Notes: generated by a model not told the origin, from the sequence alone. A stretch of 32,000 nt of DNA from Pyrobaculum calidifontis JCM 11548 (GCF_000015805.1 NC_009073.1:1350001-1382000), one strand, 5' to 3'. Positions 5,651-26,558 are shown, counted from the stretch's first letter. Numbers and translations: made by a program.

Positions 5651-5669
5651 AAGGTAAGGGGAGGCTACG

Positions 5670-5688
5670 TTTAAAAGCCTTATTCCAC
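5670..5688 (-). promoter_or_regulatory. GGAATAA-box plus TATA promoter of tusA 5423..5650
   Basis: Minus strand reads GTGGAATAAGGCTTTTAAA. TATA is ~24 nt upstream of the ATG. Confidence 0.55.
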
Positions 5689-5697
5689 AGCCCCTGG

Positions 5698-6126: not shown

Positions 6127-7283
6127 GGCACTACCCCCAGAAGCCAGTTGAAGTACACTTTCTCAAACATCTCCTTGAACAATCGCGTCGCAGGTGCTGG
6201 CGGAAGGAACATGCAGTCGGGGTACGGCTTCTGCTTTTTCACAAACGGCGTGAAGTCGCAGGCAGCGGCCATTCCAAAGGCCCCCACGTCTAAGGCGCAT
6301 GTGCCAACAATTCTAAACGGGGGCTTCCCGAGGTATACGCCGAATAGGTCGGCGGCTATGTTGCTTATAACCCAGGGCATGTAGCTGTGTAGAATTGTCC
6401 CAGCCATCCCCACTGGGACGTTGGGAGCGGCAACGTCGCCTATTACGTATACGTCGTCGTATTTTGCGCTTCTAAAGTCGCCGTTGGCGGGGTTGCGAGG
6501 CGCCGCCCACCCATTTTTAGCCAAGTCACTGTTGAGCACGGGGTCCGGCGCCTTGTGCGGCGGGACAATAAAGGCCGCGTCGAACTTAAACTTCTCCCCG
6601 GTGGTGGTTTCCAGCTCGCTCTTGCCCAAGCTCTTGATTGCCGTGGACTGCCCCACGCCGACGTATTCAATCCCCAGCTGCTGTAGGAAGCCGGACATCC
6701 ACTTGGCCGCCATTGGGCCAAAGTTCTCAAAGGGCCTCTTGAGCGGGTGCACCACAGTTATCTTGACCTTGTCTCTCAGTCCCCGGGTTAGGTAGTAGAA
6801 GTGGGTAAGCATTGCCAGCTCGATGGGGGCTGGCGGACAGCGGTAGGGCAGAGAGTAAACGCCGATGACGATGTGCCCCTGCTTCACCTGGGCGAGGGCC
6901 TCGGCAACCTTGAGAGAAGGCTCTAGCTCCCACGTGTGGGGGAACCCAGTCTCTACGGTCTCTGCGCCGAGGGCCACCACCAACACGTCGTAGGTAAACT
7001 CCCCGGCCGTCGTCTTCACCTTCCTATTGGCCGCGTCTATGGCTGTCACCTTGGCCTTCACAAAATTTACCCCGTGGCGTTTTACGTGCTCAAGAGGGAC
7101 AGAGACTTCCTCCGGCCTCCTGTAGCCAAAAGCCACGTAGAGGTACGAAGGCCTAAAGTCCGTCCTATCCTTGGCGTCTATGAGCGTTATTTCCACATCC
7201 CCCGGCCCAAACCTCTCCCTAAGCTCCTTCACAGTCATTAAGCCGCCAGTTCCACCGCCCAGAACCAACACCTTTTTGGGCAT
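6123..7283 (-). CDS. sqr: Sulfide:quinone oxidoreductase-type FAD flavoprotein
   Basis: KVLVLGGGTGG Rossmann motif. Conserved-Cys contexts PYRCPPAPIE and GTCALDVG, plus VYVIGD. Start moved to the ATG at 7283 (TATA 24 nt upstream). Confidence 0.75.
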   Translation of the reverse strand: MPKKVLVLGGGTGGLMTVKELRERFGPGDVEITLIDAKDRTDFRPSYLYVAFGYRRPEEVSVPLEHVKRHGVNFVKAKVTAIDAANRKVKTTAGEFTYDVLVVALGAETVETGFPHTWELEPSLKVAEALAQVKQGHIVIGVYSLPYRCPPAPIELAMLTHFYYLTRGLRDKVKITVVHPLKRPFENFGPMAAKWMSGFLQQLGIEYVGVGQSTAIKSLGKSELETTTGEKFKFDAAFIVPPHKAPDPVLNSDLAKNGWAAPRNPANGDFRSAKYDDVYVIGDVAAPNVPVGMAGTILHSYMPWVISNIAADLFGVYLGKPPFRIVGTCALDVGAFGMAAACDFTPFVKKQKPYPDCMFLPPAPATRLFKEMFEKVYFNWLLGVVP

Positions 7284-7302
7284 AGACTTCACTTTCCAAA
7301 AA

Positions 7303-7369: not shown

Positions 7370-7792
7370 TTATATAAACAGAGTGACGGAGGCGTCCTTT
7401 GCCCTCTCGAGGAAGGTGGCGGCGCCCACCACCTCGTCCACGAAATCGGCGAGTTGCGCCTTGTCTTTTATGCCAAACATCTCCATGGTGGTAGAGCACG
7501 CGTAGACGCGTACGTTGCCCATGGACTTGGCTTGTCTTATAAGCTCGTGCCACGGCGGGAAGTTCATCTGCTTAACCGCCTGAGCCACCGCGGGGGCATA
7601 CTCTGCGAAGTCGGCCGAGATCTTCATCTGGGACAAGTTCTCCTTCCTAATGGCGTTTAGCCCCCAGAAGGTGAAAAAGAGCTCCACGTCCCAGCCCCCA
7701 GCGGCGGCCGCGCTCGAAAGAATGGCCACGGGGTACAGCTTGTCCACAGTGCCGCTCCACACGATTATTGCAAGCTTGTTTTTCTTTTCCAT
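7370..7792 (-). CDS. dsrE: DsrE3-type DsrE/DsrF-like sulfur carrier protein
   Basis: KLAIIVWSGTVDKLYPVAIL...VELFFTFWGLNAIRK...VYACSTTMEMFGI is typical of COG2210/DsrE3-like proteins with the active Cys. Confidence 0.75.
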   Translation of the reverse strand: MEKKNKLAIIVWSGTVDKLYPVAILSSAAAAGGWDVELFFTFWGLNAIRKENLSQMKISADFAEYAPAVAQAVKQMNFPPWHELIRQAKSMGNVRVYACSTTMEMFGIKDKAQLADFVDEVVGAATFLERAKDASVTLFI

Positions 7793-7830: not shown

Positions 7831-8322
7831 GCCCTCAGTGGAAGTACTTGTCAACGCCTTTTTAAGCTCTAGGAAATACGCGTCGCTGTCTAGCTCGAAC
7901 TGGTCTATCAAGTCCTCAATGTTTCCAGCAGTTAAGTTTTCCACAAAGGTCTTAAACCCCATCGCGGCGTAGACCACCTCCCCCTCCTGTTTTATTGGGA
8001 AGAGGAAGGGCGCCGGGTTGCCGAACTTCTCCACAGAGAACCTAGTCGTGGCGTCCTCCAGCTCCTCCACGTTGGAGACGCCCTCAAGGCGCCTCACGTC
8101 GTCCAGGTTCAAGAAGGCCAAGGCGTAGCCCTCCTCAGTCTTCAAGGCAGTGACAAGGTAGGGCCTGGGCCTACCCGGGAGGGAGAGGATGTAGGTGGCC
8201 TCGGCCCCCTCCTCCAGCTTCGCCAGCTCGTGGACCAAGTCCTCTACCTCCCCCAGCTCCTCAACTCCGTGGTTAAACCTAAGCCTTAGTAAAAAGTCCC
8301 CAATTATGTCGTAGATGCTCAC
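7822..8322 (-). CDS. Uncharacterised ~166-aa protein translationally coupled to dsrB copy 2 (orfX2)
   Basis: 4-nt overlap with the dsrB2 stop. Divergent homolog of 437..928. Confidence 0.6.
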   Translation of the reverse strand: MSIYDIIGDFLLRLRFNHGVEELGEVEDLVHELAKLEEGAEATYILSLPGRPRPYLVTALKTEEGYALAFLNLDDVRRLEGVSNVEELEDATTRFSVEKFGNPAPFLFPIKQEGEVVYAAMGFKTFVENLTAGNIEDLIDQFELDSDAYFLELKKALTSTSTEGVE

Positions 8323-9419
8323 GCCAAGAACTGCCTTATGCCGAACTCGCCCTCAAATTTCACGGGCTTATTCCACTTGGTGACTGGGATGTTCAACATC
8401 TCGTAGAACTTCTCCATGCCAATTCTGTGCACCCAGTCGCCCAGCCTCTCCCCCTCCCTGGCGTTCTGCCTCCACACGTCGATTATCTTCTTCACCACGG
8501 CCACGATTTCCCTATACGCGGGCGGGATGGCTGGCACCCAGGGTATTACCTGCACCGAGGGGAGCGGGCCTCTGCCTGTGTTGCTCGCCTTGCCGCCTAT
8601 GAGCACGGCCACTCCGGCCTTGCTCTGGTCGAAGTCAATCCAGTCACAGACGTCGCGGCAGCGGCCGCAGGCGATGCACTTGGACCTAATTATGTCGAGG
8701 CCCACAGAGCCGTCGGGTTTTCCATACACCTTTATGGCGTTGGTGGGGCACACCTCGGCCACCTCTGGCACGTGGCCGGCCTCCAGGGCCTTGGCGGACT
8801 TGGGGAGGCAGAGTTTTATCCTCTCGGGGTCGTAGGTGGGGGCGTCTCCGTAGTGGCCCACCAGGTTTATGTCCGCTGTGAACCCGCCGCAACTGCTGGG
8901 GCAACCAGAGACGTTTATCCTAAGCTTCGCCGGGAGAGTTATCTCGCCTGTGAAGTAGGGCTTAAGCGCGTCGTAGAGAACCTTGGTAATGCTGGGCGCG
9001 TCCACCACCGCTGTGGTGCACGTCAGAAAGGCAGTACAGCTGTTTATAGACCATATGGTGGGGCCCCAGCCTCCCACTGGGAAGCCCAGCTTCTCCACGG
9101 CCTCCTTGATCTTAAGCGCGTTCTCTAGAGAGTCTGCCATGAACTCCACGTTTCCGTTTCTGGTAATCCTCAGCGCCCCGATGCCGTAGGTGTCAGCGAT
9201 TTCGACAAACTTCTTGAGAGTGTCGACGCTGACCCGGAAGTTGGGCGGCGTGCCCACCTTCACTGTGAATATCCTCTCCCCAGTGGCAGAGACGTGCTCA
9301 ATTATGCCGTAGCCGTGGAACTTCCTATCCACCCACTTGCCCAAATTCCGCTTCAGCGCCTCCGGCAGCCAGTCGGTGTAGGGTACTGGGAGCCTCTTCT
9401 TAAACCTCTCAGCGCTCAT
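8319..9419 (-). CDS. dsrB: Dissimilatory sulfite reductase-type protein, beta subunit (copy 2)
   Basis: CTAFLTC and SGCPSSC motifs. Ferredoxin insert CPTNA...CIACGRCRDVC. 4-nt overlap with dsrA2. Confidence 0.85.
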   Translation of the reverse strand: MSAERFKKRLPVPYTDWLPEALKRNLGKWVDRKFHGYGIIEHVSATGERIFTVKVGTPPNFRVSVDTLKKFVEIADTYGIGALRITRNGNVEFMADSLENALKIKEAVEKLGFPVGGWGPTIWSINSCTAFLTCTTAVVDAPSITKVLYDALKPYFTGEITLPAKLRINVSGCPSSCGGFTADINLVGHYGDAPTYDPERIKLCLPKSAKALEAGHVPEVAEVCPTNAIKVYGKPDGSVGLDIIRSKCIACGRCRDVCDWIDFDQSKAGVAVLIGGKASNTGRGPLPSVQVIPWVPAIPPAYREIVAVVKKIIDVWRQNAREGERLGDWVHRIGMEKFYEMLNIPVTKWNKPVKFEGEFGIRQFLA

Positions 9420-10654
9420 AGCTTGTACTCAGCCACTATCTTGTTGACCCAGTCTAGCCACATCTTCCTCTCCTCGTCGTCGAGCACCGCGCCCGCCCTA
9501 AGCGACGGGTGTAAGGTGGGCTTGCCCTGCGGCTTCACCTTCACCACCTCCTCGAGGTAGCGCTTGAAGCCTACCTTCATGATGAAGTCCCCAATCCTGT
9601 CCTTGTGCTTAACCATGCCCTTCTCCATGCCCTCCATCCAAGCCTCGACAGTCTTCACCACCCAGTCCGCGGCCTCCTTGTAGTCGTTGACTATGGCCAA
9701 GGGCTTGGACATCTTTCCGCCAAATCTGCCCTTGACGTGGCCGCCCACGAGCACCGCAATCTTCCTGTTTTTGCCTGGCTTTATGGCTGGGAAGGCTGTG
9801 CGGATGCAGTGCATAGACTTTTTGCACTTGCTCCCGTCTATCACGAGCTCTTTCTTCTCGGCGTCCCACCTAATGGCGCCGCTGGGACAATTGGCGGCAA
9901 GCTTCACCGGGTCCACAACCCCCCTCTCCACAAGCTCCCTAAACTTAGCCTGATCCACCTCAGGAGCACCCTCCCAGATGCCTATAAAGCCGAAGTCGGC
10001 GCGGTGCACTGCCCTAGTGCAGTCGAATGGGCATCCCGAGAACTTGGCCTTGAATTTGAAGGGGAACAGCTGGTTGCTCATCCACTCGTATATCTTGGGG
10101 TGGGTTAAGAAGTAGTCCCGCGCCGCGAGGGTGTCGTATAGGGCGAACTCGCAGAGGGCGGGCCCGACGCACGTGGCCAGCTCTCTGATGGTGTCGCCGG
10201 TGGCCCCCACGTCTGTTCCAATGGCCCTCAAGGCGTCGATGGCCTCATCCGCCTTCTCCGGCTGGATGGAGATAATCATCATCCCCTGTTGGCCGGCCAG
10301 CTCCACGAGGCCTAGGCCGTACTTTTCAATGAACTCGATCAGCTGGCGGAGCTTCTGCGTGGTGTATATCTGGCCCGAGGGCTGCCATACTCTGAAGTGG
10401 AGCTCCGCGTATTTTCCATCCCTGGTCCTCCTGGCGATGAAGCCAGTGTAGACGAACCGTATCTTGGCGGAGCCAGCGGCCCACATGGTCTTCCTAGCCG
10501 CCAGCCCCGCCCCGTAGGCGTCTATGGGGTAGTTGGTCTTCTTGAGCTCCGCCACGTGGCTCGGCCAAGGCCCCTTCTCGTAGTACTCAAGGATGCGGCG
10601 CCCCTCTTCTGCATATGCGTCAACAGTTAGGGGCTTTTTCTCAACAGTTTCCAT
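9416..10654 (-). CDS. dsrA: Dissimilatory sulfite reductase-type protein, alpha subunit (copy 2)
   Basis: CVGPALC and SGCPFDC motifs. The ferredoxin-like insert is identical to copy 1 over ~70 aa. TATA is 22 nt upstream of the ATG. Confidence 0.85.
   Translation of the reverse strand: METVEKKPLTVDAYAEEGRRILEYYEKGPWPSHVAELKKTNYPIDAYGAGLAARKTMWAAGSAKIRFVYTGFIARRTRDGKYAELHFRVWQPSGQIYTTQKLRQLIEFIEKYGLGLVELAGQQGMMIISIQPEKADEAIDALRAIGTDVGATGDTIRELATCVGPALCEFALYDTLAARDYFLTHPKIYEWMSNQLFPFKFKAKFSGCPFDCTRAVHRADFGFIGIWEGAPEVDQAKFRELVERGVVDPVKLAANCPSGAIRWDAEKKELVIDGSKCKKSMHCIRTAFPAIKPGKNRKIAVLVGGHVKGRFGGKMSKPLAIVNDYKEAADWVVKTVEAWMEGMEKGMVKHKDRIGDFIMKVGFKRYLEEVVKVKPQGKPTLHPSLRAGAVLDDEERKMWLDWVNKIVAEYKL
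9771..9976. repeat. Partner of the 2424..2629 near-identical tract
   Basis: Same as above. The antisense ORFs 2352..2606 and 9687..9953 give identical peptide strings across it. Confidence 0.8.
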
Positions 10655-10736: not shown

Positions 10737-11546
10737 ATGCCCACTGTGGTAATAACCTCGGGGAGGGCACACAAGGCGGACCTCCTGGCCAAGATGTTGA
10801 CCAGGGCAGGCATAGAGCCTGTCTACCTCCCCGTGGTAAAGATAGGAGAGGCCGGGGGTGCGGACGTGGCGAAGTTCATCGACGAGATATCCCACTTCGA
10901 CGTCTTCATATTCATGACTGGGCAGTCGGTTGCAAGCTTAGTGCAAGAGGCTAAGAGGGCTGGGCTAGAGCAGAGGCTTAGGGAGGCCCTCTCCAGGATG
11001 ACTATTCTGTGTAGGGGCAGCAAGGCCGCTGGCAACGTGAAATCTCTCCTAGGCCTCACCTGCGCCGTGGTGGAGGAGACCTCGGAGGAGCTGTTGAAGG
11101 TTGCTGAGAGAACGCTTGAGGGGAAGAGGGTGGCCATATCGTTCTACGGGTACCTAGACGACGAGTTTCTGCGGGAGGTGCAGAAGAGGGCCGCAGAGGT
11201 GAAGTACATACAGACCTACAGGACAGAGCTTGAGGAAAATGCGGCAGAGATAGCGAAGCTGGTCTTGGCGGGGGAGGCAGACGTGGTGGTCTTCACAAGC
11301 GCTCTGGCCTGCAACAGCTTTTTCACACAGCTCAGCGCCCTAGGCCTAGCCGAAAAAGTGGCCAACCGGTTTAGGTCGGGCGCCGTTAAGCTGGCGGCGG
11401 TGGGGCCAGTCACGGCAGAAGAGTGCAAAAAATTTGGCGTAGAGCCGCACATTGTGCCAGAAAAGCCCTTCTTGGCGTATCTCGGCGAGGCCATCATAAG
11501 GCACTTAAAACCAACGCTGAACACCGACAGCGTGAGGACACAATAG
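10737..11546 (+). CDS. hemD: Uroporphyrinogen-III synthase (HemD-like)
   Basis: Two-lobed pattern VVITSGR...FDVFIFMTGQSV and ADVVVFTSALACNSF...LAAVGPVTA is typical of HemD. TATA aataaata is 22 nt upstream. Confidence 0.6.
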   Translation: MPTVVITSGRAHKADLLAKMLTRAGIEPVYLPVVKIGEAGGADVAKFIDEISHFDVFIFMTGQSVASLVQEAKRAGLEQRLREALSRMTILCRGSKAAGNVKSLLGLTCAVVEETSEELLKVAERTLEGKRVAISFYGYLDDEFLREVQKRAAEVKYIQTYRTELEENAAEIAKLVLAGEADVVVFTSALACNSFFTQLSALGLAEKVANRFRSGAVKLAAVGPVTAEECKKFGVEPHIVPEKPFLAYLGEAIIRHLKPTLNTDSVRTQ

Positions 11547-11553
11547 CGGCCTC

Positions 11554-12948
11554 TCAGCCTGCGCAACAGGAGAGTTTTGTCACATCTTTGTAGAAGGCCA
11601 GCGCGGCTAGTCTGGCGGCTTCGCCGAAGGTGGGAAACGCGGGTATCATATCAGCAATGTCGTCCACCGTTAGGCCGTGGGCCACCGCCATGGCGAAGAT
11701 GTGTATCAGCTCCTCTGCCTGCGGCGCGGCGGCCACCGCGCCGGCTATTTTCCCGCCGCGCATGGAGATGCGCCACGTCTGGGGGTAGGTGTTTATCTTT
11801 ATGAAGCCGTCCAGGCGCCCGGAGGCCCACGCGGCGGCCACCGCGGATACGGGGGCCAGCCGGCAGACGCAACCCACTCCGCTTTTCAACATGTCCTCCT
11901 CCCTCATCCCCACGGAGGCCACGGGTGGGTCTGTGAAGACGACGCGGGGGACGTGCAGTGGGTTAAACCTGGCGTCGCCCCCTAGCGCGTTTATGGCCGC
12001 CACCACGCCCTGCCTCGCCGCGGCGTTTTCTAGATATCTCCCGCCGGGCAGTCCCCCCGTGACGTCCCCCGCCGCATATACTCCGGGGAGGCTGGTCTCC
12101 ATCCTCTCGTTCACCTTCACCGAGCCCTCCGGGTTCAGCTCCACGAGCCCCCCGGCTGCCTCTGAGTTCGGCCTTCTCCCAGCGGCGATGAAGAGAGCCT
12201 CTCCCCTCGCCCTAGACCCCTCCCGCCCCACCACCTCCACGCCGCCGTCCACGCGCCGCACTGCCACAGCCTCGTCGTGTATCACCTCGACCCCCTCCTC
12301 CCTCAGCACCTCCTCCACGAAGTGGGACGCCACCTCCTCCTCGTACTTCAACAGTCTGCCCCTCGTGAATATGGCGGTCTTAACCCCCAGCCTGTTGAGG
12401 GCTTGGGCCAGCTCCACGGACACGGCGCCGCCGCCTATGAACACCACGCTGGAGGGCTCCCCAAGCTCAAACAAGCTCTCGTTGGTGTAGTACCTCACCT
12501 CCTCCAGCCCCTTTATCGCCGGGACGGCGGGCCTGGCCCCCGTGGCTATCAACACCCGCCTGGCCTCTATCGTCCTATCCCCCACCTTTACCGCGTTGGC
12601 AGAGGCGAGAACGCCGAAGCCCTCAACGTAGTCTATGCCGTAGTACTCCAGGAGGTCTATGTACTTCTCCTGCCTAAGCCTCTCCACCACGCCGGCGGCG
12701 CCCCTCAAGAGGTCCCCAAGGCGGACCTCCACCGTTGCCTTGACGCCGGGGTAGTACCCCATCTTCGCCCTGTGGACAACCTCAGCCGCCTTGGCCAAGT
12801 ACTTGGTGGGGACACACCCCACGTTGACACAGGTCCCCCCGGGGGGCAGGCCGGCGTTAACCATGACCACCTTGGCGCCCAGCTCAGCCGCCTTTATAGC
12901 CGCGGCAAAGCCCGCGGAGCCTCCCCCCAAGACGCAGAGGTCGTACAC
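11554..12948 (-). CDS. merA: Mercuric reductase-type class I pyridine nucleotide-disulfide oxidoreductase (core MerA, no NmerA domain)
   Basis: GGGSAG FAD motif. Redox centre GGTCVNVGCVPTK. C-terminal KLSCCAG vicinal Cys pair characteristic of MerA. Confidence 0.7.
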   Translation of the reverse strand: MYDLCVLGGGSAGFAAAIKAAELGAKVVMVNAGLPPGGTCVNVGCVPTKYLAKAAEVVHRAKMGYYPGVKATVEVRLGDLLRGAAGVVERLRQEKYIDLLEYYGIDYVEGFGVLASANAVKVGDRTIEARRVLIATGARPAVPAIKGLEEVRYYTNESLFELGEPSSVVFIGGGAVSVELAQALNRLGVKTAIFTRGRLLKYEEEVASHFVEEVLREEGVEVIHDEAVAVRRVDGGVEVVGREGSRARGEALFIAAGRRPNSEAAGGLVELNPEGSVKVNERMETSLPGVYAAGDVTGGLPGGRYLENAAARQGVVAAINALGGDARFNPLHVPRVVFTDPPVASVGMREEDMLKSGVGCVCRLAPVSAVAAAWASGRLDGFIKINTYPQTWRISMRGGKIAGAVAAAPQAEELIHIFAMAVAHGLTVDDIADMIPAFPTFGEAARLAALAFYKDVTKLSCCAG

Positions 12949-12951
12949 GCC

Positions 12952-13329
12952 CTAGCCCTCCCCCCTGTTTATATTCCTTACGCACGCCAAGGCCCTTTCC
13001 ACAAAGGACCTGGCGGCTCTGTCGAAGAACTCCTTTCCAAGGAAGTTCAAGAGGCCCGTCTGCCTCCCCTTGAACCGCCACTTGCCCCCCGCCACGGAGA
13101 GCTCGAAGTTGTTCACAGTGCCCAGCCCCTCCAGCCTCCCCTCTAAGACGAGGGGGCTCTGGGAGAGGACGCGGAGGTAGAGCTTGACCTCCCCCGCGCC
13201 GAATGGCCCAGAGGCGGCGTAGACGCGGTACTCCCCCTCCTGCCCCCTAGGCGTAAATCCGAGGCACTGCGCCATTTCGTCTACGTCCACGTGGGACAGC
13301 TCGGCCTCCCCCTCGTAGTAGAGCTCCAC
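12952..13329 (-). CDS. Hypothetical protein (125 aa) immediately upstream of merA
   Basis: 3-nt gap to the merA start and 12-nt gap after the hemD-like gene. No recognisable domain. Confidence 0.45.
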   Translation of the reverse strand: MELYYEGEAELSHVDVDEMAQCLGFTPRGQEGEYRVYAASGPFGAGEVKLYLRVLSQSPLVLEGRLEGLGTVNNFELSVAGGKWRFKGRQTGLLNFLGKEFFDRAARSFVERALACVRNINRGEG

Positions 13330-13341
13330 GGGGGCAGAAGT

Positions 13342-14049
13342 CTACCCCCTTATAAGCGATGCCACGAACTTCGCCACGTCGCCCAGCCTCCCCGAGGGCG
13401 GCACCACCGCCTCTATGCCGTACTTGGCCAAGGCCTTTGCCACCGCGGGGCCCGCCGCCACGTTTACGGCGCGCCTCAGCCTCTCCGCCACGGGGAGGCC
13501 GTAGGGGTTCTCCACGGCGTACTCCACAGCCACCCCGCTGAAGAAGACGTACACGTCGCCGCCGGGCTCCACGAGCAGGCGCATCTTGTCCAAGTCCTCT
13601 GGAACGGCGTCGTAGAGCTGGAAGTGGGCCACTGAGCCGCACAGCGCCTCAAGCGCCTCGGCCAACTCCCTGTGGAACTCTCCGTGGTGAAACACCACGG
13701 CGGCGCCGCAGCCCCTAGCCCACGCCGCCACCTCCTCCCAAGTCTGGCCAGGGTAGGCCTCGACCCCGAACTTGTTCTTCACCATGACAGCCCCCTTCGC
13801 CCCCTCCGCCGTGGCCACAGCCCTGCCCGCAAACAATGCGCCTGCCCCATGCAACACCTCGGCCAACCTATACGCAACGGCCCCCGAGACAAAAACCACG
13901 TGGGTAGCCCCCGCCAAGGCCTTCGCCACCTCCTCCGCAGAGATAGACCGAGGCACCAGCTTCACCACCGGCGCCGCCACGACTCTCTCCCGCCCCAGCA
14001 CTCTCACAAACAGCTCCACCGCCCTGGGACTAGTCACCACCACCCGCAC
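13342..14049 (-). CDS. HemD-like (uroporphyrinogen-III synthase family) protein, second copy
   Basis: GTG start. VVVTSPRA...THVVFVSGAVAYRL...DVYVFFSGVAVEYA...VAAGPAVAKAL follows the HemD two-lobe pattern. Weak family, so the call is tentative. Confidence 0.45.
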   Translation of the reverse strand: MRVVVTSPRAVELFVRVLGRERVVAAPVVKLVPRSISAEEVAKALAGATHVVFVSGAVAYRLAEVLHGAGALFAGRAVATAEGAKGAVMVKNKFGVEAYPGQTWEEVAAWARGCGAAVVFHHGEFHRELAEALEALCGSVAHFQLYDAVPEDLDKMRLLVEPGGDVYVFFSGVAVEYAVENPYGLPVAERLRRAVNVAAGPAVAKALAKYGIEAVVPPSGRLGDVAKFVASLIRG

Positions 14050-14797: not shown

Positions 14798-15340
14798 ATG
14801 TACACCGGCTCGCCCAGCCGAGACAAGCTTATAAGGCACACCGCACTGCCGCACGTGGAAGAGCTCGCCAAGCCTTGGCTTAACCTTGAGGCGTACAGAG
14901 AGGCCAGAGTCAGGGAGGCCGTGTACGAGGCCGAGCTGGCTGAGGAGTTTCTCAAAAGTGGGCTAGTCAGAAACGCCGCTGGGAAGGCCTTCCAGGCGTG
15001 GAAGTCCCTCCTGGGCGCACTGCTGGTCGATAAGATTGAGGAGGTGGAGAAGGCGTACCCCGGCGTTGTGAGAATCAGGGAGGGGAAGAGGATTAAGAAG
15101 GCCCTTTGGGTCATAGCGCTGGTGCCCACTTCCCAGATGAAAAAGCTCGCCCAACTCCTCGGCGGCGAGGAAAGCGCCTTGACATCTATAGCGCTAGACC
15201 TACACAGCTACCAGTACAACGGCCCAGACCCAGAGGGAATATACAGCCCATACCCAGACGAGAAGAGCGCGCAGAGAGATGTAGAAATCCTCGTCGGCAA
15301 AGTCAAAGAATATGTTGCAAAGCTTCCCCGTCGGAGCTAG
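14798..15340 (+). CDS. PaREP1-family protein
   Basis: LAKPWLNLEAY...AELAEEFLKSGLVRNAAGKAFQAWKSLLGALL resembles the PaREP1 repeated-protein family of Pyrobaculum and other Crenarchaeota. Confidence 0.55.
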   Translation: MYTGSPSRDKLIRHTALPHVEELAKPWLNLEAYREARVREAVYEAELAEEFLKSGLVRNAAGKAFQAWKSLLGALLVDKIEEVEKAYPGVVRIREGKRIKKALWVIALVPTSQMKKLAQLLGGEESALTSIALDLHSYQYNGPDPEGIYSPYPDEKSAQRDVEILVGKVKEYVAKLPRRS

Positions 15341-15551: not shown

Positions 15552-15773
15552 CTACCCTTGCCCCTTCTTCCTTACGTACACCACATAGCCGCCCCCGGCC
15601 TCCTCCACCCTTTCCACCTTGTACTCGAGCAGAGGCAACATGACTCTGAGCGTCTTTACGCAGTCTTCGTCGTCTGTGACCACCTGGAGCTCCCCCGGGC
15701 TCTTCTCCATTATGGCTGAGAGGGCTTGTTGAGCCGGCTCGGGGCAGGGCCTCCCCCTGATGTCTAAGATCAT
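15552..15773 (-). CDS. TusA/SirA-like sulfurtransferase
   Basis: MILDIRGRPCPEP motif. The start overlaps the stop of the SelD-like gene by 4 nt. Confidence 0.7.
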   Translation of the reverse strand: MILDIRGRPCPEPAQQALSAIMEKSPGELQVVTDDEDCVKTLRVMLPLLEYKVERVEEAGGGYVVYVRKKGQG

Positions 15774-17473
15774 AAAATTTCAAAGTCTTTGAACTCCCCC
15801 AAATACCTTTCCCACTGGGTCTCTGCCACTCTACACCTCTCCCTCCCCCTGCAGGCCTCCTCTGCGAATTTCCTAATGGCGTCTGCGTCGCCCTCCACAA
15901 CCACCTCCACGCGGCCGTCGGGGAGATTTCTAGCGTAGCCCGTCAAGCCCAGCACCCGGGCCCTAGACCTTAGGTAGGGCCTATAGCCCACACCCTGCAC
16001 GTCCCCCTCCACGTAGATCCTAGCCCTCGCCGGCTTGGCCACCCCCAGCCCCGCAAGGATGGGCGCCTGGGCGGCCAACTTCTCCTTGAGCTTTCTATTG
16101 GATATGTAGGACAGGGCCTCCGGGGGGACGTGGAGCCGCCCCTCGCCTCTGCCCACCACTCTGCCCACCACCCTGGGGGATAGGTGGGGGATCTTGGACA
16201 GCTCCTTCACCACCTCCTCTGCCAGAGACTCGTGGAGGAACAGGGCCACCGCGCCGTTGGTCCCCGCGGTGGCGTCGGGCATAATGTAGAAGTCTGCGGC
16301 GAATTTAGAGAGCTTGGGGTTGAGGAGGGGCACTTCGAACAGCTCTATGTCTACCCCGGCCTTCTCCGCCACCTCTTTAAAGACGAAGATCCCGGGCCCC
16401 GAGACGTCTATCGTCGCGGCTATGTGATCCTCAGCCCTAAACCTCTCCCCCAGCCCCGGCAGGTGGCGGTATATCACCTTGGCCACCTCGGCGTTGGGAG
16501 TGGCCATAAGCTCGAGGACTCTCCTCTTCTCTCTCTCAAACTCCTCAAGGGGCATCACCGAGGACTCGAAGGCCTTTAGAAGCTCCTCGTCTGCGTGGAT
16601 GGCCACGTAGGTGGTGAAGTAGGCAAGTTCCCCGAAGGGCCTAGTGACCACCACCACGAACCCTCTGTCCAACTCTCTGTAGAAGGTGGGGGGCTCCCTG
16701 TCCAGGTAGCCCCACGCCGTGGCGCCCAGGAGGAGGTAGCCCCGGCGGGGGAGGGGGGCCTCCACCACTTTGCCCAGCCTAGAGGCGTGGGCTAGGTAGC
16801 TCTTCTCCACCCCCTCGTACCAGCGCTCAGGCGCGTCGTATATGGGGGCTATGTGGACGTCTTTGTAGACGCCTTTGACGTAGAGGTCGTTGAGGGCGTT
16901 GTTTATCGCCACGGCCACCTGGAGTGGGGAGTCCAAGTCCTCGGAGGGGTCTATCACTTGGATAGTGTCGTTGTTGGCGAGGATGTAGCCCCCCTCGCCG
17001 TAGGTCTTTAAGAAGTCTACCATGAAGAACTCCGCGCCCTGCTTCGTGCTCACTATGCTGTGCCCCTTGCCGAGCCACACCCTGTGCCGGGTGGAGCCAA
17101 GCGCCTTGTAGAGCCTCGCGGCGTACTCGGCGAATCTCTCCGCCGAAGCGGCCTTGGCCATGTAGAGTTGCACAAGCACCACCGCCAGAGAGGGGGCAAA
17201 GGACTCCACAGCCGCGGCGTCGAGCTGTGGGTTCTCCACGTCGAGGAAGACCCTCATCAGCTGGGCCTCCTCCCCCCTTACAATGGCCGCGTCCTCCCTG
17301 GGGGCAATGACTAGGTTGAGCTTCGACACCTCGTCCCTCAGGAGCTGGATGGCGGGGTACAACACGTCGTAGAGGTCCACCTTCACAGAGCAACCAAGCG
17401 AGAGAGACTCCAGGGCGATGCCCGCCTCGCGGTACAGCTTGACCCTCTCCCTAAAACGCTCGATTGGGCTCAT
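15770..17473 (-). CDS. SelD-like (PurM/AIR-synthase-related superfamily) protein fused to a C-terminal acylphosphatase domain
   Basis: SelD-like blocks: LGCSVKV, REDAAIV, AINNALNDLYVKG, VTRPFG, IDVSGPGI, DATAGTNGAVALF. C-terminal YVEGDVQGVGYR...GYARNLPDGRVEVVVEG is an acylphosphatase signature with the catalytic Arg and Asn. Confidence 0.65.
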   Translation of the reverse strand: MSPIERFRERVKLYREAGIALESLSLGCSVKVDLYDVLYPAIQLLRDEVSKLNLVIAPREDAAIVRGEEAQLMRVFLDVENPQLDAAAVESFAPSLAVVLVQLYMAKAASAERFAEYAARLYKALGSTRHRVWLGKGHSIVSTKQGAEFFMVDFLKTYGEGGYILANNDTIQVIDPSEDLDSPLQVAVAINNALNDLYVKGVYKDVHIAPIYDAPERWYEGVEKSYLAHASRLGKVVEAPLPRRGYLLLGATAWGYLDREPPTFYRELDRGFVVVVTRPFGELAYFTTYVAIHADEELLKAFESSVMPLEEFEREKRRVLELMATPNAEVAKVIYRHLPGLGERFRAEDHIAATIDVSGPGIFVFKEVAEKAGVDIELFEVPLLNPKLSKFAADFYIMPDATAGTNGAVALFLHESLAEEVVKELSKIPHLSPRVVGRVVGRGEGRLHVPPEALSYISNRKLKEKLAAQAPILAGLGVAKPARARIYVEGDVQGVGYRPYLRSRARVLGLTGYARNLPDGRVEVVVEGDADAIRKFAEEACRGRERCRVAETQWERYLGEFKDFEIL

Positions 17474-17715
17474 CGCACCTTCCTAATCACAATGCGCCAC
17501 ACCCCCCTCTCCACCTCGAAGACCCCCACCACCTCTTGCCCCTCCCGCCTAGCCACTGCAGGCACGTTTTCACACGACGGCGGATTGTCGGTAATGACCT
17601 CCAAAACCTCCCCCACCGCCATCTCCCTCAGCGCTTTCACAGTGGCCAACTGGGGGTAGGGACACACGTACCCCCTGAGGTCAAGCACCCTCTTGCCCAC
17701 CTCCTTCACAGCCAT
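17470..17715 (-). CDS. tusA: TusA-like sulfurtransferase (two-Cys subtype)
   Basis: ORF-track 17470..17832 trimmed to the ATG at 17715 (MAVKEVGKRVLDLRGYVCPYP). Second Cys in TDNPPSCENV. The stop overlaps the start of the SelD-like gene by 4 nt. Confidence 0.8.
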   Translation of the reverse strand: MAVKEVGKRVLDLRGYVCPYPQLATVKALREMAVGEVLEVITDNPPSCENVPAVARREGQEVVGVFEVERGVWRIVIRKVR

Positions 17716-17727
17716 GGGCAAATGTGG

Positions 17728-17739
17728 GGATATAAAAGG
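17728..17739. promoter_or_regulatory. TATA element (ggatataaaagg) upstream of tusA 17715, possibly bidirectional
   Basis: Minus strand reads CCTTTTATATCC, ~19 nt upstream of the ATG at 17715. It lacks the GGAATAA box. A near-palindromic A/T core could also fire rightwards. Confidence 0.4.
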
Positions 17740-17765
17740 TGTTGCAAATGTGCAAAAAAGACACT

Positions 17766-18085
17766 TCAGTTGCAGTACGCGGCGAGCATGCTGACCCCCG
17801 GCCACGGGACGGCGTAGTCCACTACCTCGCACCGCCGGGGCTTCACCGCGCCGAGGAGGACGGCCAGCGTCTTAAGCTCCCCCTCGGGCTGGGCCTCGCC
17901 GAAGCCCGGAAGAGAGTCTAGGCGCGGGATGCACTCAACACGCCCGCCTCTAAGCGCTTAGATGTTACAGCTACCTCCAGGTCCGCCAGCTGGTCTGCCT
18001 GGGTCACCACGCCACTTTTGACGCCAAGACTGGGCGAGTGGCGATGCACCCCAACCACGGCGAGGCGAGGACGTTGCCGAGGCAT
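17766..18085 (-). pseudogene. Possible frameshifted remnant of a small gene upstream of tusA
   Basis: Two adjacent minus-strand frames give protein-like text: [48 protein letters not shown]..., then ...[57 protein letters not shown] with a stop at 17766. No intact ORF and no TATA. Confidence 0.2.
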
Positions 18086-21436: not shown

Positions 21437-22178
21437 GCCCGCCTTGTTGATTACGCTTGGCGCGCTGGGCGGCGCGGCGGCCTTTGCCCACTTGGCCTCG
21501 CCCAAGTGGGCGGCTTTTGCGGGAGGGGTTGTTTTACACATGGCGCTAGTCCAAGCGTTTCTAGCGGCGTCTTTCGTCAAATCCCTCGCCGTAGTGGCCC
21601 CAGTGAACTTAATCCCCTTGTTCATCCTCGGCGTATTTACCACATCTGCGGCATTCATGCTGGGGGTAATCGCAACAATAAAGTGGGGGGAGAGGCACCT
21701 CTACCTCCCTCTGGCCCTCTCAGCGGCTCTTTTGGCAAACAAGGCCCCCGCCGTAGAGGCGCTTCAAACATACGGCGTAGACGTCACCTATCTGGGCTAT
21801 GTGGCATACGGCATGCTCCTAGCCGCCTCCGCCTCTGCCGTCTCCCACAACCTAGCACTTAGGCTGCCCTCCGCCTACCCCCTCGCCTTTGCGGTCGCCG
21901 CGCTTTTAGGCAACTTAGCCTACGCCGCAACCCCCAACCTCCTATACTCCGAGGGCCTCCTCTACTACATGTTCACCACGGCCAACCTCTACTCTTTCAA
22001 CTCGGCTATGATGGTGTACCTAGGCTTTAGAAACAACGTGGCGGCCTTGGGCAAAATGGGCGGCTTTAAGTCCACCAAGTTTTGGCTCTACCTCCTCCTT
22101 GGAAACCTCGCTTACGGCCTTGTGGAAGTGTTATTCATGATTAAGAACCCACAGGTTCACGACCTTTTACACAGATGA
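21420..22178 (+). CDS. Integral membrane protein (~8 predicted TM helices), unknown family
   Basis: Hydrophobic throughout. Its stop overlaps the start of the Tat-flavoprotein gene (ATGA). The true start is uncertain. Confidence 0.5.
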   Translation: MLPPVEPALLITLGALGGAAAFAHLASPKWAAFAGGVVLHMALVQAFLAASFVKSLAVVAPVNLIPLFILGVFTTSAAFMLGVIATIKWGERHLYLPLALSAALLANKAPAVEALQTYGVDVTYLGYVAYGMLLAASASAVSHNLALRLPSAYPLAFAVAALLGNLAYAATPNLLYSEGLLYYMFTTANLYSFNSAMMVYLGFRNNVAALGKMGGFKSTKFWLYLLLGNLAYGLVEVLFMIKNPQVHDLLHR

Positions 22179-23374
22179 AGAGGCGCGACCTCCTAAAGCT
22201 CGCCCCCTTGCCCCTCTTAGCCGCGTTGTTGCCCCTAATCTGGCCCAGGGGGCGCCCGGGGGCAGACGTCAAGGCTAAGGTCTTGGTGGTTGGGAAAGGC
22301 ATTGCCGGCAGCATGGTGAAAATGATCTTAGACAGCCACGGTGTGGGGGCCACGGTGCTTGAGTGTTCAGACGCGGCTCTGCCCGGGCCTGGGAAAGTGG
22401 ACGTGGCCCTGGGGCTCGCCGACGCGGGAGACCTCCTAGTCCACTTAGGCGTCGGCGGCGGCGTGGTGAAGACCTGCGCCACGGGCATAGACCCCGACAA
22501 CCGCCTCGTCTACACAGACACCAGGGTGTACTCCTACGACATCCTCTTCTTGACGCCGGGCGTGGTCTTCGACTACGGCGCAGTGGAGGTCAAGGGCAGA
22601 GTGGACAACTTTACCCCCTACGAGTTAGGCTCGGCGCTGGCCAAGAGGGAGCTGAGCGCCGGGCGCTACGTGATTGTACACCCCAATTTGCCCTACCGGT
22701 GCACCTCGGCGCCCTACGAGTTCGCCCTCCTCCTAGACTGGAGACTTAGGGAGGAGGGGAAGCCCCACAGCGTCACCATAATCTCGCAGGTGGGGAAGAT
22801 CCCGGCCGTCTTTGAAAAATATATCTCACAGATGGGGGAGCTCGTGTGGAAAATACTGGAGGAGAGGGGTGTCGAGTACATAAACGCCGAGGTAGAGCTC
22901 GTGGATGGGGAAAACAAGGTGGTGCACCTCTCCACTGGGGAGAAGGTTCCCTTCGACTACCTCACCTTAGTGCCCCCCAATAAGGCTCCTAGGTTTATCT
23001 CAGCTGTGTCAAACGCCGAGGGGTTCTACGTGGAGGTAGACGAAAGGATGAGGCACCCCAAGTACAGAGATATCTACGTGGCGGGAGACGCGGTTTGGCA
23101 CGTGGTTAAGACAGGATGGGCCGCGGCCACCGAGGCCGCCATAGCCGCCGCGTGGGCGCTCGAGGACTTAGGCATAAGCGTGGAGAAGCCCAAGGAGATA
23201 TACAGCGAAGATGCTATAAGGATAACCCCAGACCTGGGGATTAGGGGGGCGAAGAGGTGGTACCCAATATACGGCGATGTTTACTGGCGGCAGATAGAGG
23301 GCCCAAGCCCAGAGGTCGTGGAGGCGAAGAAAAAAACAATAGAGTTCTTCCGACAGTTGCTAAAATACTACTAG
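22175..23374 (+). CDS. Tat-signal SQR/flavocytochrome-c-sulfide-dehydrogenase (FccB)-like flavoprotein
   Basis: MKRRDLLKLAPLPLLAALL twin-arginine signal. VLVVGKGIAGS FAD motif. PYRCTSAPYEF conserved-Cys context and YVAGDA motif. Confidence 0.7.
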   Translation: MKRRDLLKLAPLPLLAALLPLIWPRGRPGADVKAKVLVVGKGIAGSMVKMILDSHGVGATVLECSDAALPGPGKVDVALGLADAGDLLVHLGVGGGVVKTCATGIDPDNRLVYTDTRVYSYDILFLTPGVVFDYGAVEVKGRVDNFTPYELGSALAKRELSAGRYVIVHPNLPYRCTSAPYEFALLLDWRLREEGKPHSVTIISQVGKIPAVFEKYISQMGELVWKILEERGVEYINAEVELVDGENKVVHLSTGEKVPFDYLTLVPPNKAPRFISAVSNAEGFYVEVDERMRHPKYRDIYVAGDAVWHVVKTGWAAATEAAIAAAWALEDLGISVEKPKEIYSEDAIRITPDLGIRGAKRWYPIYGDVYWRQIEGPSPEVVEAKKKTIEFFRQLLKYY

Positions 23375-23731
23375 TCTGTCCACTTCCTCCAGGAAGGTGT
23401 ACATTGAGGTGACCTTGTCCACAAGCGCGGGGTCATACTCCTCCTCGGAGATTCCAAAGATCTTGCTGGCCGTTTCGCAGACGTATACCTTGACGCTCCC
23501 TATGGACTTCGCTGTAGAGAGCAGGGACTTCCAATCCACGCCCAACTCCACGATTCTCTTGTGCTCTGGCGAGGATAGGGGAGGGGCGTACTCTTTTTTA
23601 AACGCCTTGACAGCCTCCCCGGTGACGAATATGCTAACCTCCTCGCCCCTGGCCACCAGCGTAGACACAAGCGTGGCAAATTCGTACAGTCTCACAAAGT
23701 CGCCGCTCCCCACTATGATTCCAAAGGCCAT
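23360..23731 (-). CDS. dsrE: DsrE3-type DsrE/DsrF-like sulfur carrier protein
   Basis: ORF-track 23360..23755 trimmed to the ATG at 23731 (MAFGIIVGSGD). VKVYVCETASKIFGI Cys motif. TAATG junction with the upstream tusA. Confidence 0.75.
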   Translation of the reverse strand: MAFGIIVGSGDFVRLYEFATLVSTLVARGEEVSIFVTGEAVKAFKKEYAPPLSSPEHKRIVELGVDWKSLLSTAKSIGSVKVYVCETASKIFGISEEEYDPALVDKVTSMYTFLEEVDRLVVF

Positions 23732-23979
23732 TACCTCTCTATCACAATGCGCCAAACGCCCTTCTCAGGCATGTCCATGGCGACGACTTTGCTACCGTTT
23801 CTCTCAGCCACAGACTTTATATTGTCGCAGGAGGGAGGGTTGTCTGTGTACACCACCAGGACCTCACCCTTCTTAATGCTCTTAAGCGCCTGTGCCGTAT
23901 ACATCTGGGGGTAGGGGCACACAAAGCCCTTTAAATCTAGCTCGTACTTCCCATCCCCAATCTTCTTCAAGCTGGGCAT
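23731..23979 (-). CDS. tusA: TusA-like sulfurtransferase (two-Cys subtype)
   Basis: ATG at 23979 (MPSLKK...). LDLKGFVCPYPQ plus TDNPPSCDNI. Paralog of 17470..17715. GGAATAA-TATA promoter at 24001-24018. Confidence 0.8.
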   Translation of the reverse strand: MPSLKKIGDGKYELDLKGFVCPYPQMYTAQALKSIKKGEVLVVYTDNPPSCDNIKSVAERNGSKVVAMDMPEKGVWRIVIER

Positions 23980-24000
23980 GCCGACCCCCATTTTGCACAA

Positions 24001-25211: not shown

Positions 25212-26558
25212 ATGAGGGCGGCAACTATACTCATAGCCGTCTTGGTCGTGGCCCTGGTGATACTTGCGGCGTTATACACCTCGGCCACACAAGAGTTGGC
25301 CTCTGCCCGGGGAGAGGTTGAAAAGGCTAAGCAGGAGGCGGCGCAGGCAAGTAAACAGGCTGAGGAGCTTAGGGGGCAGTTGACCCAGCTTCAGAACAGG
25401 CTGAACGAGCTACAGTCGAGGCTAGCCGAGGCTCAGAAGACCATAGAAGCGCTGAGGGGACAAGCGCAACCCATTGCTGGCTACATGTACGCCCTTGTGG
25501 TTGACACTGTAGGCGGTAGCGACGAGTTGTTTATATATGTGATCGACCCCCGCACCAACGACCTCGTCGTCAAAATACCTCTAAGAGATAGACTGCCAGC
25601 AGACGTATATACGCTTATGAGAAACGCCTCACTGAGGCTTGTCTCCCCCTCCACGCTAGAGGTCTGGATGCCGCGGTATTATACGCAGCCGGGGCAGTAC
25701 CTCTATATCCTATACGAGGGGCCGTGGGGGTCCTATGTGGCGGCCCTAGATCCCAAGGACTTCTCCTTGGTGAAGAACGTGAAGATCTACGACAAGTACA
25801 CTAGACAGTACGGCGGCATATCGCCTGATGGGAAGCTCCTAGTGGTTGCGCAACGCCAGGCGCAACAGATAGTCTACCTAGACGCCAAGACTTTGGATGT
25901 GATAAGAGCGGTGAAGACTGACGCCAATCCGTGCGACGTGGCGCCTTCGCCCGACGGAAACTACTTCGCCATTCCTGTGAGGGCCGACGGGGCAGAGGGC
26001 AAGCCTGAATACGTTTTGATCATCGACCGGGAGGGGAGGGAGGTGGCGCGCGCCTACTTTAGAAGGCCTGGCGAGGCTGGGCCTCCCACGGAGCCCTCCA
26101 TGACCTACTGGACGCTCGACGGGAAATATGTATTACTGCAGGGGGAGGCTAGGCCCTATGAGGCAGTGGTGGAGGTGGACGTTGCGGCTAAGTCGGCGAG
26201 AATTGTAAAGGAGGTGAGCTACCCCTCTGGCACCGTGGCGTTTATGGCTGAGGAGCATCCCATGGCCAAGGGCGAGGTCTGGGTGGTGGTGAGAGGTGCG
26301 GGGGTCTATGTCAGATCGCCGCCGCCAGAGTACAGGGAAATCACGCGCGTTGCCACGGCTATAGACGTTAAGGGCATTGTACAAGGCGCATTTAGCCCAG
26401 ATGGGCGCTATTTCTACGTCGTGGGATCTGGCGGCATAGATGTAATTGACGTGGCGGCTAAGTCCGTGGTAAAGACTATAAAGGCTAAGTCGGCTGTGTG
26501 GATCATTGCAATACCCAGCGGCGAGTGGCTATACTATAGCGGAGTGTTGAGAGGGTGA
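25212..26558 (+). CDS. Membrane-anchored coiled-coil plus YVTN-type beta-propeller protein
   Basis: TM segment ILIAVLVVALVILAALY. About 60 aa of coiled coil (EKAKQEAAQASKQAEELRGQLTQLQNRLNELQSRLAEAQ). YVTN-like repeats ISPDGKLLVVAQ...IVYLDAKTLDVIRAVKT, PSPDGNYFAIPV, FSPDGRYFYVVGSGGIDVIDVAAKSVVKTI. Confidence 0.6.
   Translation: MRAATILIAVLVVALVILAALYTSATQELASARGEVEKAKQEAAQASKQAEELRGQLTQLQNRLNELQSRLAEAQKTIEALRGQAQPIAGYMYALVVDTVGGSDELFIYVIDPRTNDLVVKIPLRDRLPADVYTLMRNASLRLVSPSTLEVWMPRYYTQPGQYLYILYEGPWGSYVAALDPKDFSLVKNVKIYDKYTRQYGGISPDGKLLVVAQRQAQQIVYLDAKTLDVIRAVKTDANPCDVAPSPDGNYFAIPVRADGAEGKPEYVLIIDREGREVARAYFRRPGEAGPPTEPSMTYWTLDGKYVLLQGEARPYEAVVEVDVAAKSARIVKEVSYPSGTVAFMAEEHPMAKGEVWVVVRGAGVYVRSPPPEYREITRVATAIDVKGIVQGAFSPDGRYFYVVGSGGIDVIDVAAKSVVKTIKAKSAVWIIAIPSGEWLYYSGVLRG

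Follow-up and report, generated by a model that had tools for sequence, protein, structure and literature searches.

A SelD-like protein fused to an acylphosphatase and encoded between two TusA-family carriers in Pyrobaculum calidifontis belongs to a published archaeal family with sulfur-gene neighbourhoods

The closest described relatives of the system analyzed here are the archaeal 'SelD-like' proteins, a family described computationally in Sulfolobales and Thermoproteales by Li, Jiang, Ni, Liu and Zhang (BMC Genomics 2014, 15:908; PMC4210487). These authors pointed out a conserved cysteine and conserved metal ligands and found that all SelD-like proteins of Thermoproteales are fused to an acylphosphatase-like domain. 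As neighbours they listed SirA-like (TusA) and 'Prx-like' COG2210 genes, with DSR and rhodanese genes in the vicinity. In their proposal, the proteins synthesize a thiophosphate compound and the acylphosphatase hydrolyses an acyl-(thio)phosphate; they left a role in selenium metabolism open, and noted that the physiological substrate of stand-alone acylphosphatases is unknown. According to a May 2026 review, the function of the family is still 'speculated'. We analyzed a 32,000-nucleotide (nt) stretch of the Pyrobaculum calidifontis JCM 11548 chromosome (GCF_000015805.1, NC_009073.1:1350001-1382000, hereafter the window) that contains a three-gene cassette in which a SelD-like/acylphosphatase fusion is encoded between two TusA-family carriers. 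Within the published family, which NCBI curates as NF038049, the window protein is an ordinary Thermoproteaceae representative: it shows a full-length match, the Thermoproteales-type fusion, SirA/TusA and small DsrE-like partners and sulfur surroundings, and differs from the family in nothing essential. The system was already known: Li et al. had described the family in 2014 together with its fusion, its TusA partners and the idea of thiophosphate, and NCBI annotation has taken it up as NF038049. A first-pass annotation of this DNA stated that no enzyme with a SelD-like domain fused to an acylphosphatase had been characterised, which holds for biochemistry but not for the architecture; the novelty that it implied is not borne out, since both the observation and the hypothesis are found in Li et al. 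2014, and its mechanistic reading repeats the one already published. As to function, we give slightly better than even chances to a persulfide relay of TusA type in which the large protein uses ATP to activate sulfane sulfur in the manner of SelD.

The three open reading frames (ORFs) lie on the minus strand where the first-pass annotation had placed them. The fusion ORF (15770-17473, 567 amino acids (aa)) is preceded by the upstream TusA-family carrier, TusA-U (17470-17715, 81 aa when read from the ATG at 17715; the longest ORF form spans 17470-17832), and followed by the downstream carrier, TusA-D (15552-15773, 73 aa). Direct reading of the sequence confirmed that both gene junctions are 4-nt overlaps, ATGA in each case, and the two TusA carriers are translationally linked to the SelD-like protein via these overlaps. 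The start of TusA-U is uncertain, with ATG 17715 and GTG 17709, 17700 or 17688 as options, of which the gene caller picked 17688 (72-aa form). A TATA-like element read by eye on the minus strand, TTTTATAT (17730-17737), lies just upstream of ATG 17715, a position that fits the shorter TusA-U form, and is a candidate archaeal promoter of the three-gene operon. Within the 567-aa protein, a SelD-related PurM-superfamily ATP-utilising domain occupies residues 1-470 (16064-17473) and the acylphosphatase domain residues 479-567 (15773-16039), with a linker at residues 470-478 preceding the latter. The SelD-related domain contains a G27-C28-S-V-K31 loop (17381-17395), which aligns to the loop bearing the catalytic Cys/Sec and Lys of SelD, and a family-specific insertion of residues ~71-160 (16994-17263) between the first two Asp-bearing strands of the SelD core. 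The possibility that the fusion is a frameshift or assembly artefact, raised at first pass, is excluded because the identical 567-aa protein with identical neighbours recurs on 13 independent metagenome contigs, and the same fused architecture is present in 18 other Thermoproteaceae genomes (L001-L018).

Residues 5-467 of the large protein matched the NCBIfam model NF038049 (SelD_rel_HyperS, "SelD-related putative sulfur metabolism protein") with 663.6 bits against a cutoff of 250, and the N-terminal 470 aa alone scored 664.6 bits and covered model positions 1-464 of 465. The models of the better known relatives gave far less with this N-terminal part: the SelD model PRK14105 scored 31.8 bits against a cutoff of 291, the second SelD model (TIGR00476) had no match at E<=10, the HypE model TIGR02124 reached 12 bits (E 0.07) against a cutoff of 251.6, and no NCBIfam match to ThiL or PurM was listed. 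The Pfam AIRS_C domain was detected in the large protein below threshold (14.5 bits). A profile was built from a 28-sequence alignment of 12 fused and 16 unfused members. Against the PDB, this profile ranked human SelD/SEPHS1 first (E 1.7e-5), followed by HypE (0.076) and PurM (0.2); a single-sequence phmmer search of the PDB returned matches to the acylphosphatase domain only. An AlphaFold2 model computed from the same alignment had a mean predicted local distance difference test score (pLDDT) of 90 and a predicted template-modelling score (pTM) of 0.79, the only two stretches with a pLDDT under 50 being residues 26-28 and the linker. In Foldseek searches of the PDB, SelD structures again came first (2.7e-15 to ~1e-12, 3fd5 at the top), ahead of HypE (2.5e-12) and ThiL (~5e-11), and just ~306-336 of the ~470 residues were superposable on SelD, HypE or ThiL. 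By profile and predicted fold, SelD is thus the nearest characterised family, ahead of HypE, ThiL and PurM, and the SelD-type identity proposed at first pass for the N-terminal ~470 aa is borne out, with no better score to any of the other three. The large protein is nevertheless not a SelD orthologue. It shares with SelD/SEPHS (selenide, water dikinase, EC 2.7.9.3) the two-domain fold of the PurM superfamily, the Gly-Cys-x-x-Lys loop, counterparts of Asp51, Asn87, Asp91 and Asp227 and the GTNG/TSGG C-terminal motif, but differs in its 15-19% identity over ~310 residues, its GKGHS-bearing insertion, its acylphosphatase fusion and a gene context of sulfur rather than selenium.

The correspondence with the SelD active site was read from hhalign comparisons of the family alignment with E. 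coli SelD, whose sequence was checked against PDB 3u0o. At full length only residues 188-384 were aligned, because the insertion breaks the alignment. When the insertion (71-160) was removed, the family paired from residue 21 onward with residues 10-337 of E. coli SelD over 289 columns (E 3.3e-5), and the block-by-block matches listed in the first-pass annotation held. This alignment pairs G27-C28-S-V-K31 with G16-C17-G-C-K20 of SelD, D61 with D51, N192 with N87, D196 with D91 and D356 with D227; Asp68 of E. coli is offset by one residue, facing N168 instead of D169, where the confidence of the alignment is low. Invariant in all 28 sequences are G27, C28, V30, K31, D33, R59, D61, N167, N168, D169, T170, N192 and D196 in the N-terminal half, and T354, D356, G359, P360, G361, T402, G404, T405, N406 and G407 further on. 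The GCxxK motif is kept in 164 of 169 full-length members, very divergent ones included, so that the Cys and Lys picked out at first pass are conserved in orthologues. The remaining five (P0134, P0141 and three others) have GCSVE, with Lys replaced by Glu, and have also lost GKGHS, NNDT and GTNG; judging from these losses, they may be catalytically inactive paralogues. In the model, the low pLDDT at residues 26-28 would fit a mobile Cys loop. The insertion, which the first-pass annotation had put at roughly 100 aa after the first block, is real; it measures ~90-100 aa and contains invariant R74, F114, G135-K136-G137-H138-S139-I140 and D153. An origin by internal duplication of the PurM N-domain was considered and is unsupported (hhalign E 0.15-0.22), and hhalign detected no homology between the insertion and the rest of the SelD-like domain.

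The C-terminal part of the protein is a complete acylphosphatase domain, as first proposed. Pfam Acylphosphatase (PF00708) matched residues 485-566 with 78.9 bits (gathering score 22.5), and both the VQGVGYR phosphate-binding loop with its catalytic Arg and the catalytic Asn, in ARNLPDG, are present. The Arg and the Asn are each kept in 54/54 acylphosphatases that are fused or adjacent to a SelD-like gene. A phosphate-binding loop and catalytic Asn of this kind are shared with the stand-alone acylphosphatases of S. solfataricus (2bjd), Thermus (1ulr) and Pyrococcus (1w2i), from which the present domain differs in being fused behind a 470-aa enzyme; other archaea encode one immediately downstream. 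Foldseek superposed the domain on 2bjd with a template-modelling (TM) score of 0.82 and 43% identity. The cutoffs of the NCBIfam stand-alone acylphosphatase models were not reached (best PRK14433, 74.7 bits against 100), a shortfall expected of a fused domain that does not contradict its membership. Two proteins retrieved through this module stand apart. P0042 (382 aa, on a JGI contig of 3475 nt) joins CbiX to an acylphosphatase and is ~100% identical to window residues 326-567; as the actinobacterial-style CbiX is joined at a short, locally similar stretch, we rejected it as a variant architecture and regard it as a probable metagenome assembly chimera. P0254 (447 aa) is an unrelated fusion with an acylphosphatase at 356-445 behind a repeat-rich N-terminus with many 'GDGxxD' repeats, and it matched the query through the acylphosphatase part only.

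Acylphosphatase domains and PurM-fold enzymes work together in only one well-understood case, that of HypF with HypE, which makes thiocyanate on the way to the cyanide ligand of [NiFe]-hydrogenase. The two systems have in common an ATP-dependent PurM-fold enzyme, an acylphosphatase module and a Cys-borne substrate, and by analogy the acylphosphatase could take carbamoyl phosphate while the PurM-fold domain dehydrates or activates, with ATP, a group on the TusA Cys. HypE structures are indeed the second-best fold matches, and the HypF acylphosphatase domain (4g9i) is detectably similar (phmmer E 1.9e-6); however, Thermus 1ulr and Sulfolobus 2bjd are closer (~1e-15), and the domain is of the ordinary stand-alone type rather than the HypF type. 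The HypE model recognised the N-terminal part only at the low score given above, the invariant Cys (C28) lies in an N-terminal loop of SelD type and not at the C-terminus as in HypE, and the 28-sequence alignment contains no conserved C-terminal Cys in the SelD-like domain. The Zn-finger, YrdC and Kae1-like domains of HypF were not detected in the large protein with Pfam or NCBIfam. Altogether, a HypE/HypF-like reaction is very improbable.

Both neighbours of the fusion gene are TusA-like carriers with the CPxP cysteine, in agreement with the first-pass annotation: Pfam TusA (PF01206, threshold 28.6) matched TusA-U (CPYP) with 86.1 bits and TusA-D (CPEP) with 52 bits. TusA-U is highly conserved across loci ('LDxRGYxCPYP...TDNPPSCENVP') and has a second Cys, in 'DNPPSCENVP', at +30 from the CPxP Cys, which is kept in 31/36 upstream TusAs; at this position YeeD and TM0983 have Lys and YedF has Ile. 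The second Cys of TusA-D is in 'TDDEDC' at +28, and a Cys at +28/+29 occurs in 20/33 carriers of this downstream type (CP[EKQ]P...TDDExC), the thaumarchaeal CPWP-type downstream TusA being without it. In NCBIfam, TusA-U scored best to YedF (PRK11018, 60.2 bits, cutoff 79) and 29.3 bits to YeeD-TsuB (NF041048, cutoff 147.5), both under the cutoff, and TusA-D reached 23.1 bits with PRK11018, also under its cutoff. The nearest solved structures to TusA-U are TM0983, Ta1170, E. coli YedF (1je3) and the Spirochaeta thermophila fusion of YeeE with YeeD (8k1r), and TusA-D matched E. coli TusA weakly (E 3e-3). These comparisons place TusA-U in the YedF/YeeD subgroup. The cassette thus resembles the YeeE/YeeD (TsuA/TsuB) thiosulfate uptake and YedE/YedF pairs in that TusA-U is nearest to TM0983, YedF and YeeD and that YeeE is found nearby in 24 loci, but differs from them in that TusA-U lies under the model cutoffs and has an extra Cys, and in that the YeeE gene of the window is not adjacent. 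This gene, a YeeE/YedE-type sulfur transporter (Sulf_transp, Pfam PF04143, 144.6 bits) on the plus strand at 26555-27805, is 9.1 kb off, where the first-pass annotation had noted it at 9 kb.

YeeD/TsuB has been reported to decompose thiosulfate, and the kinship of TusA-U to it, together with the second Cys in most carriers of both TusA types, also bears on a different use of ATP. ATP might be spent at another step of the relay, with no free thiophosphate: on the release or reduction of a TusA-bound thiosulfonate or persulfide, on loading of the second TusA through a two-Cys thiol/disulfide switch, or on a ThiL-like phosphorylation of a small molecule. The invariant K136, H138 and S139 of the insertion suggest catalytic or binding functions beyond those of SelD, and the acylphosphatase is dispensable in 29 of the 81 loci described below. 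However, the complete SelD active-site set is kept, which argues for phosphoryl transfer to a chalcogen, and ThiL and PurM are more distant than SelD. We regard such a step as a minority possibility.

To place the cassette among its relatives, one genome per species was scanned, which gave 80 loci, 81 with the window, and their genes were compared by ORF-level phmmer and clustering. The acylphosphatase is fused in 19/81 loci (Thermoproteus, Pyrobaculum, Caldivirga, Vulcanisaeta and Thermocladium) and in 33/81 is encoded on its own directly after the SelD-like gene, on the same strand and mostly with a gap of 0-28 nt (Desulfurococcaceae, Acidilobaceae/Caldisphaera, Pyrodictiaceae, Ignisphaera, Thermofilaceae, Hydrothermarchaeales, Methanomethylicia and some Thaumarchaeota); the other 29, which include all Sulfolobales and the marine Thaumarchaeota, have no linked acylphosphatase. 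Being found as a separate gene across many orders, the linkage is much older and wider than the fusion, and an acylphosphatase that is either fused or immediately downstream points to a dedicated partner of the SelD-like enzyme. A TusA gene adjoins the SelD-like gene on the same strand in 59/81 loci and lies within 5 kb in 70/81. The conservation of the TusA neighbours expected at first pass holds for the upstream gene, which is adjacent on the same strand in 13/19 fused loci and divergent in 3 more, but not for the downstream one, which among fused loci occurs only in the window and in Thermoproteus sp. AZ2. In other orders a downstream TusA is seen again, behind the separate acylphosphatase gene, and the order of the window (TusA, SelD-like, acylphosphatase, TusA) is repeated in six unfused loci. 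The recurrent core order is YeeE-TusA-SelD-like-(acylphosphatase)-TusA. Frequent neighbours over the 81 loci are YeeE/Sulf_transp (24), a two-domain rhodanese (21), a small DsrE-like protein (12) and an SQR-like flavoprotein (7); the 24 loci with YeeE, none of them the window, have it at most 5 kb from the SelD-like gene and typically just upstream. Examples are a tight YeeE-TusA-SelD-like-TusA operon in a Desulfurococcales genome, a TusA-SQR-like-DsrE-DUF1641-SelD-like order in Stygiolobus, and a groundwater thaumarchaeon in which rhodanese-TusA is divergent from SelD-like-TusA-sulfite reductase.

This distribution enlarges the picture of Li et al. 2014 (PMC4210487) in several ways. The family extends past Sulfolobales, Thermoproteales and hyperthermophiles, YeeE and rhodanese appear as frequent partners, and the acylphosphatase link, as a separate adjacent gene, reaches Desulfurococcales, Acidilobales, Pyrodictiaceae, Ignisphaera, Thermofilaceae, Hydrothermarchaeales and others. 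Desulfurococcales, reported in 2014 to be without a SelD-like gene, do have such genes in our survey. Marine Thaumarchaeota (L057, L065, L066, L069, L073, L074) have a SelD-like-TusA-TusA-rhodanese order without acylphosphatase, and with divergent SelD-like genes present in mesophilic Thaumarchaeota, 'hyperthermophile' is too narrow a label for the family. The family is nonetheless small: a search of 1.84 billion cluster representatives returned 41 proteins at E<=1e-30 and 186 at E<=1e-10, the latter including acylphosphatase-only matches. Divergent members still match NF038049 first. A 262-member cluster of soil Nitrososphaeraceae (P0189) scores 226 bits, just below the NF038049 cutoff, and is annotated as hypothetical for that reason.

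YedE and YedF are linked to SelD in selenium-using bacteria, and the YeeE-TusA-SelD-like operon mirrors that association. A cryptic selenium trait, in which a divergent selenophosphate synthetase with YeeE/YedE-like and YedF-like partners supplies selenium for an unrecognised product, would also accommodate the position of SelD as the closest characterised family in profile, fold and NCBIfam comparisons, the retention of the catalytic Cys-x-x-Lys and the metal ligands, and the affinity of TusA-U to YedF, with its best score to PRK11018 and its match to 1je3. The SelD and YedF model cutoffs were both missed, however, and the neighbourhoods are all of sulfur genes (DsrAB, DsrE, SQR, rhodanese, sulfite reductase and sHdr-like). 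Some true SelDs have a selenocysteine form; all 81 SelD-like ORFs read through the active-site position without an in-frame stop and Cys is found there in 164/169 members, so that there is no sign of such a form in this family. In the 32-kb window and the +/-8-10-kb loci we saw no genes for SelA/SepSecS, SelB, tRNA-Sec, SelU or selenium-cofactor/selenoneine synthesis, and Sulfolobales and Thermoproteales have no known selenium-utilisation trait (Li et al. 2014, PMC4210487). The SelB-like factor aSelBL, which occurs in Sulfolobales, Caldivirga, Vulcanisaeta and Thaumarchaeota (Atkinson et al. 2011), was considered as an obligate partner and rejected, being absent from the fusion-bearing Pyrobaculum and Thermoproteus. 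We consider a selenium trait improbable.

The reading that we prefer, SelD-type activation of sulfane sulfur within a TusA relay, is supported by the sulfur genes present in the neighbourhoods of every lineage. In this relay, sulfane sulfur (thiosulfate imported via YeeE, or polysulfide or sulfide) would be loaded as a persulfide on the CPYP Cys of TusA-U and handed to Cys28 of the SelD-like domain, which sits on the putatively mobile loop. The sulfur would then attack the gamma-phosphate of bound ATP, as in SelD, to give thiophosphate or a thiophosphorylated intermediate, and the ADP would be hydrolysed to AMP and Pi. The acylphosphatase might bind or hydrolyse a mixed anhydride formed from that product, for example an acyl-thiophosphate to a thiocarboxylate, or might instead proofread a phospho-intermediate, and TusA-D would carry the sulfur onward. 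What we observe is the identity of the domains, a conserved set of catalytic residues, the arrangement as an operon and neighbourhoods of sulfur genes; how sulfur travels (from YeeE or another source through TusA-U to Cys28), what the enzyme makes and what the acylphosphatase does are inferred.

Several points weigh against this proposal. The wide miss of the SelD model cutoff, together with a ~90-aa insertion that has its own GKGHS motif, means that the chemistry could differ from that of SelD. The 29/81 loci without a linked acylphosphatase indicate that this activity is inessential to the core reaction, and it is hard to see what a fused phosphatase-type domain would do for an enzyme that makes thiophosphate, where it could even be futile. 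To our knowledge, no consumer of thiophosphate exists in biology and thiophosphate has no established metabolic role. The relative placement of the two domains is undefined in the model because of the low pLDDT of the linker, and a full-text search of the literature found no biochemical or genetic study of any family member. Thiophosphate as the specific product is accordingly held with much less confidence than the relay as a whole and is, on balance, rather unlikely.

Other sulfur genes of the window include DsrAB-like genes, DsrE2, two SQR-like genes and, with those of the cassette, four TusA-like genes in addition to YeeE. Six kb from the cassette, a second U-type TusA with two Cys ('CPYP...TDNPPSCDN', 23731-24000, minus strand) overlaps a small DsrE-like gene (23360-23755, minus strand), and together they correspond to the 'SirA-like + Prx-like COG2210' pair whose co-occurrence with the SelD-like gene was described by Li et al. 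2014; the pair is adjoined by an SQR-like gene (22175-23374). On the other side, a DsrA/DsrB-like pair (9416-10654 and 8319-9419) is directly followed downstream by DsrE2 (7370-7792), an SQR-like flavoprotein (6123-7292), a DUF1641 protein (5698-6126) and a TusA (5423-5737), all on the minus strand. In Stygiolobus (L086), the same set of TusA, SQR-like, DsrE and DUF1641 genes shares a single operon with the SelD-like gene. A pair of HemD-like (uroporphyrinogen-III synthase) genes, one on each strand (10737-11546, plus; 13342-14049, minus), encloses a pyridine-nucleotide disulfide oxidoreductase with a dimerisation domain (11554-12948, minus) and a conserved 125-aa ORF without family (12952-13329, minus), and these genes may serve siroheme supply to the adjacent sulfite reductase. 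Immediately past the cassette, on the opposite strand, is a gene of the PaREP1/PaREP8 family (14798-15340, plus), a repeat protein typical of Thermoproteaceae, which is kept in the metagenome copies L081-L083.

Some loci of the survey have features of their own. The only one with a bacterial label is on a 406-kb contig of a metagenome-assembled genome labelled Acidobacteriota (L031, 4600-13300), and it could reflect either horizontal acquisition by a bacterium or an archaeal contig that was binned wrongly. Its genes are, in order, HdrC-like, thioredoxin-like, GcvH/LbpA-like, DsrE-like, LplA-like (lipoate-ligase-like), ArsR, SelD-like, TusA, rhodanese, acylphosphatase, TusA, a membrane protein and SQR-like, neighbours that tie the SelD-like gene to an sHdr-LbpA-type sulfur-oxidation set. 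In Thermocladium modestius JCM 10088 (L019, 8001-9700), the SelD-like ORF has 397 aa and a separate 116-aa acylphosphatase ORF begins 91 nt later; all other Thermoproteaceae carry the fusion, and the split may stem from a frameshift, from decay to a pseudogene or from an error in sequencing. In seven loci (L027, L032, L044, L062, L076, L079, L080; Caldisphaera, Acidilobus and Hestiella), the SelD-like operon is adjoined on the opposite strand by genes for a ~390-aa PALP protein (CysK/CysM-like, dependent on pyridoxal phosphate) and a calcineurin-like phosphoesterase, an arrangement that hints at a link to cysteine synthesis in Acidilobales.

The survey sharpens the targets for work on this family: the YeeE/TusA/SelD-like/acylphosphatase/TusA order, the invariant acylphosphatase residues, the second TusA Cys, the GKGHS motif and the mesophilic Thaumarchaeota. 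Genetically tractable orthologues exist in Sulfolobales. In its most far-reaching form, which we put forward as a speculation with a low chance of being right, thiophosphate or an enzyme-bound thiophosphoryl group made from TusA sulfur would be a general sulfur donor in archaea without cysteine desulfurase-based mobilisation, the acylphosphatase would cleave acyl-thiophosphate to a thiocarboxylate, and the two-Cys TusAs would load and unload the sulfur. If true, this would be a sulfur counterpart of the selenophosphate pathway with a new activated-sulfur metabolite, and it would give a first physiological role to acylphosphatase, which is fused or adjacent to the SelD-like gene in 52/81 loci.

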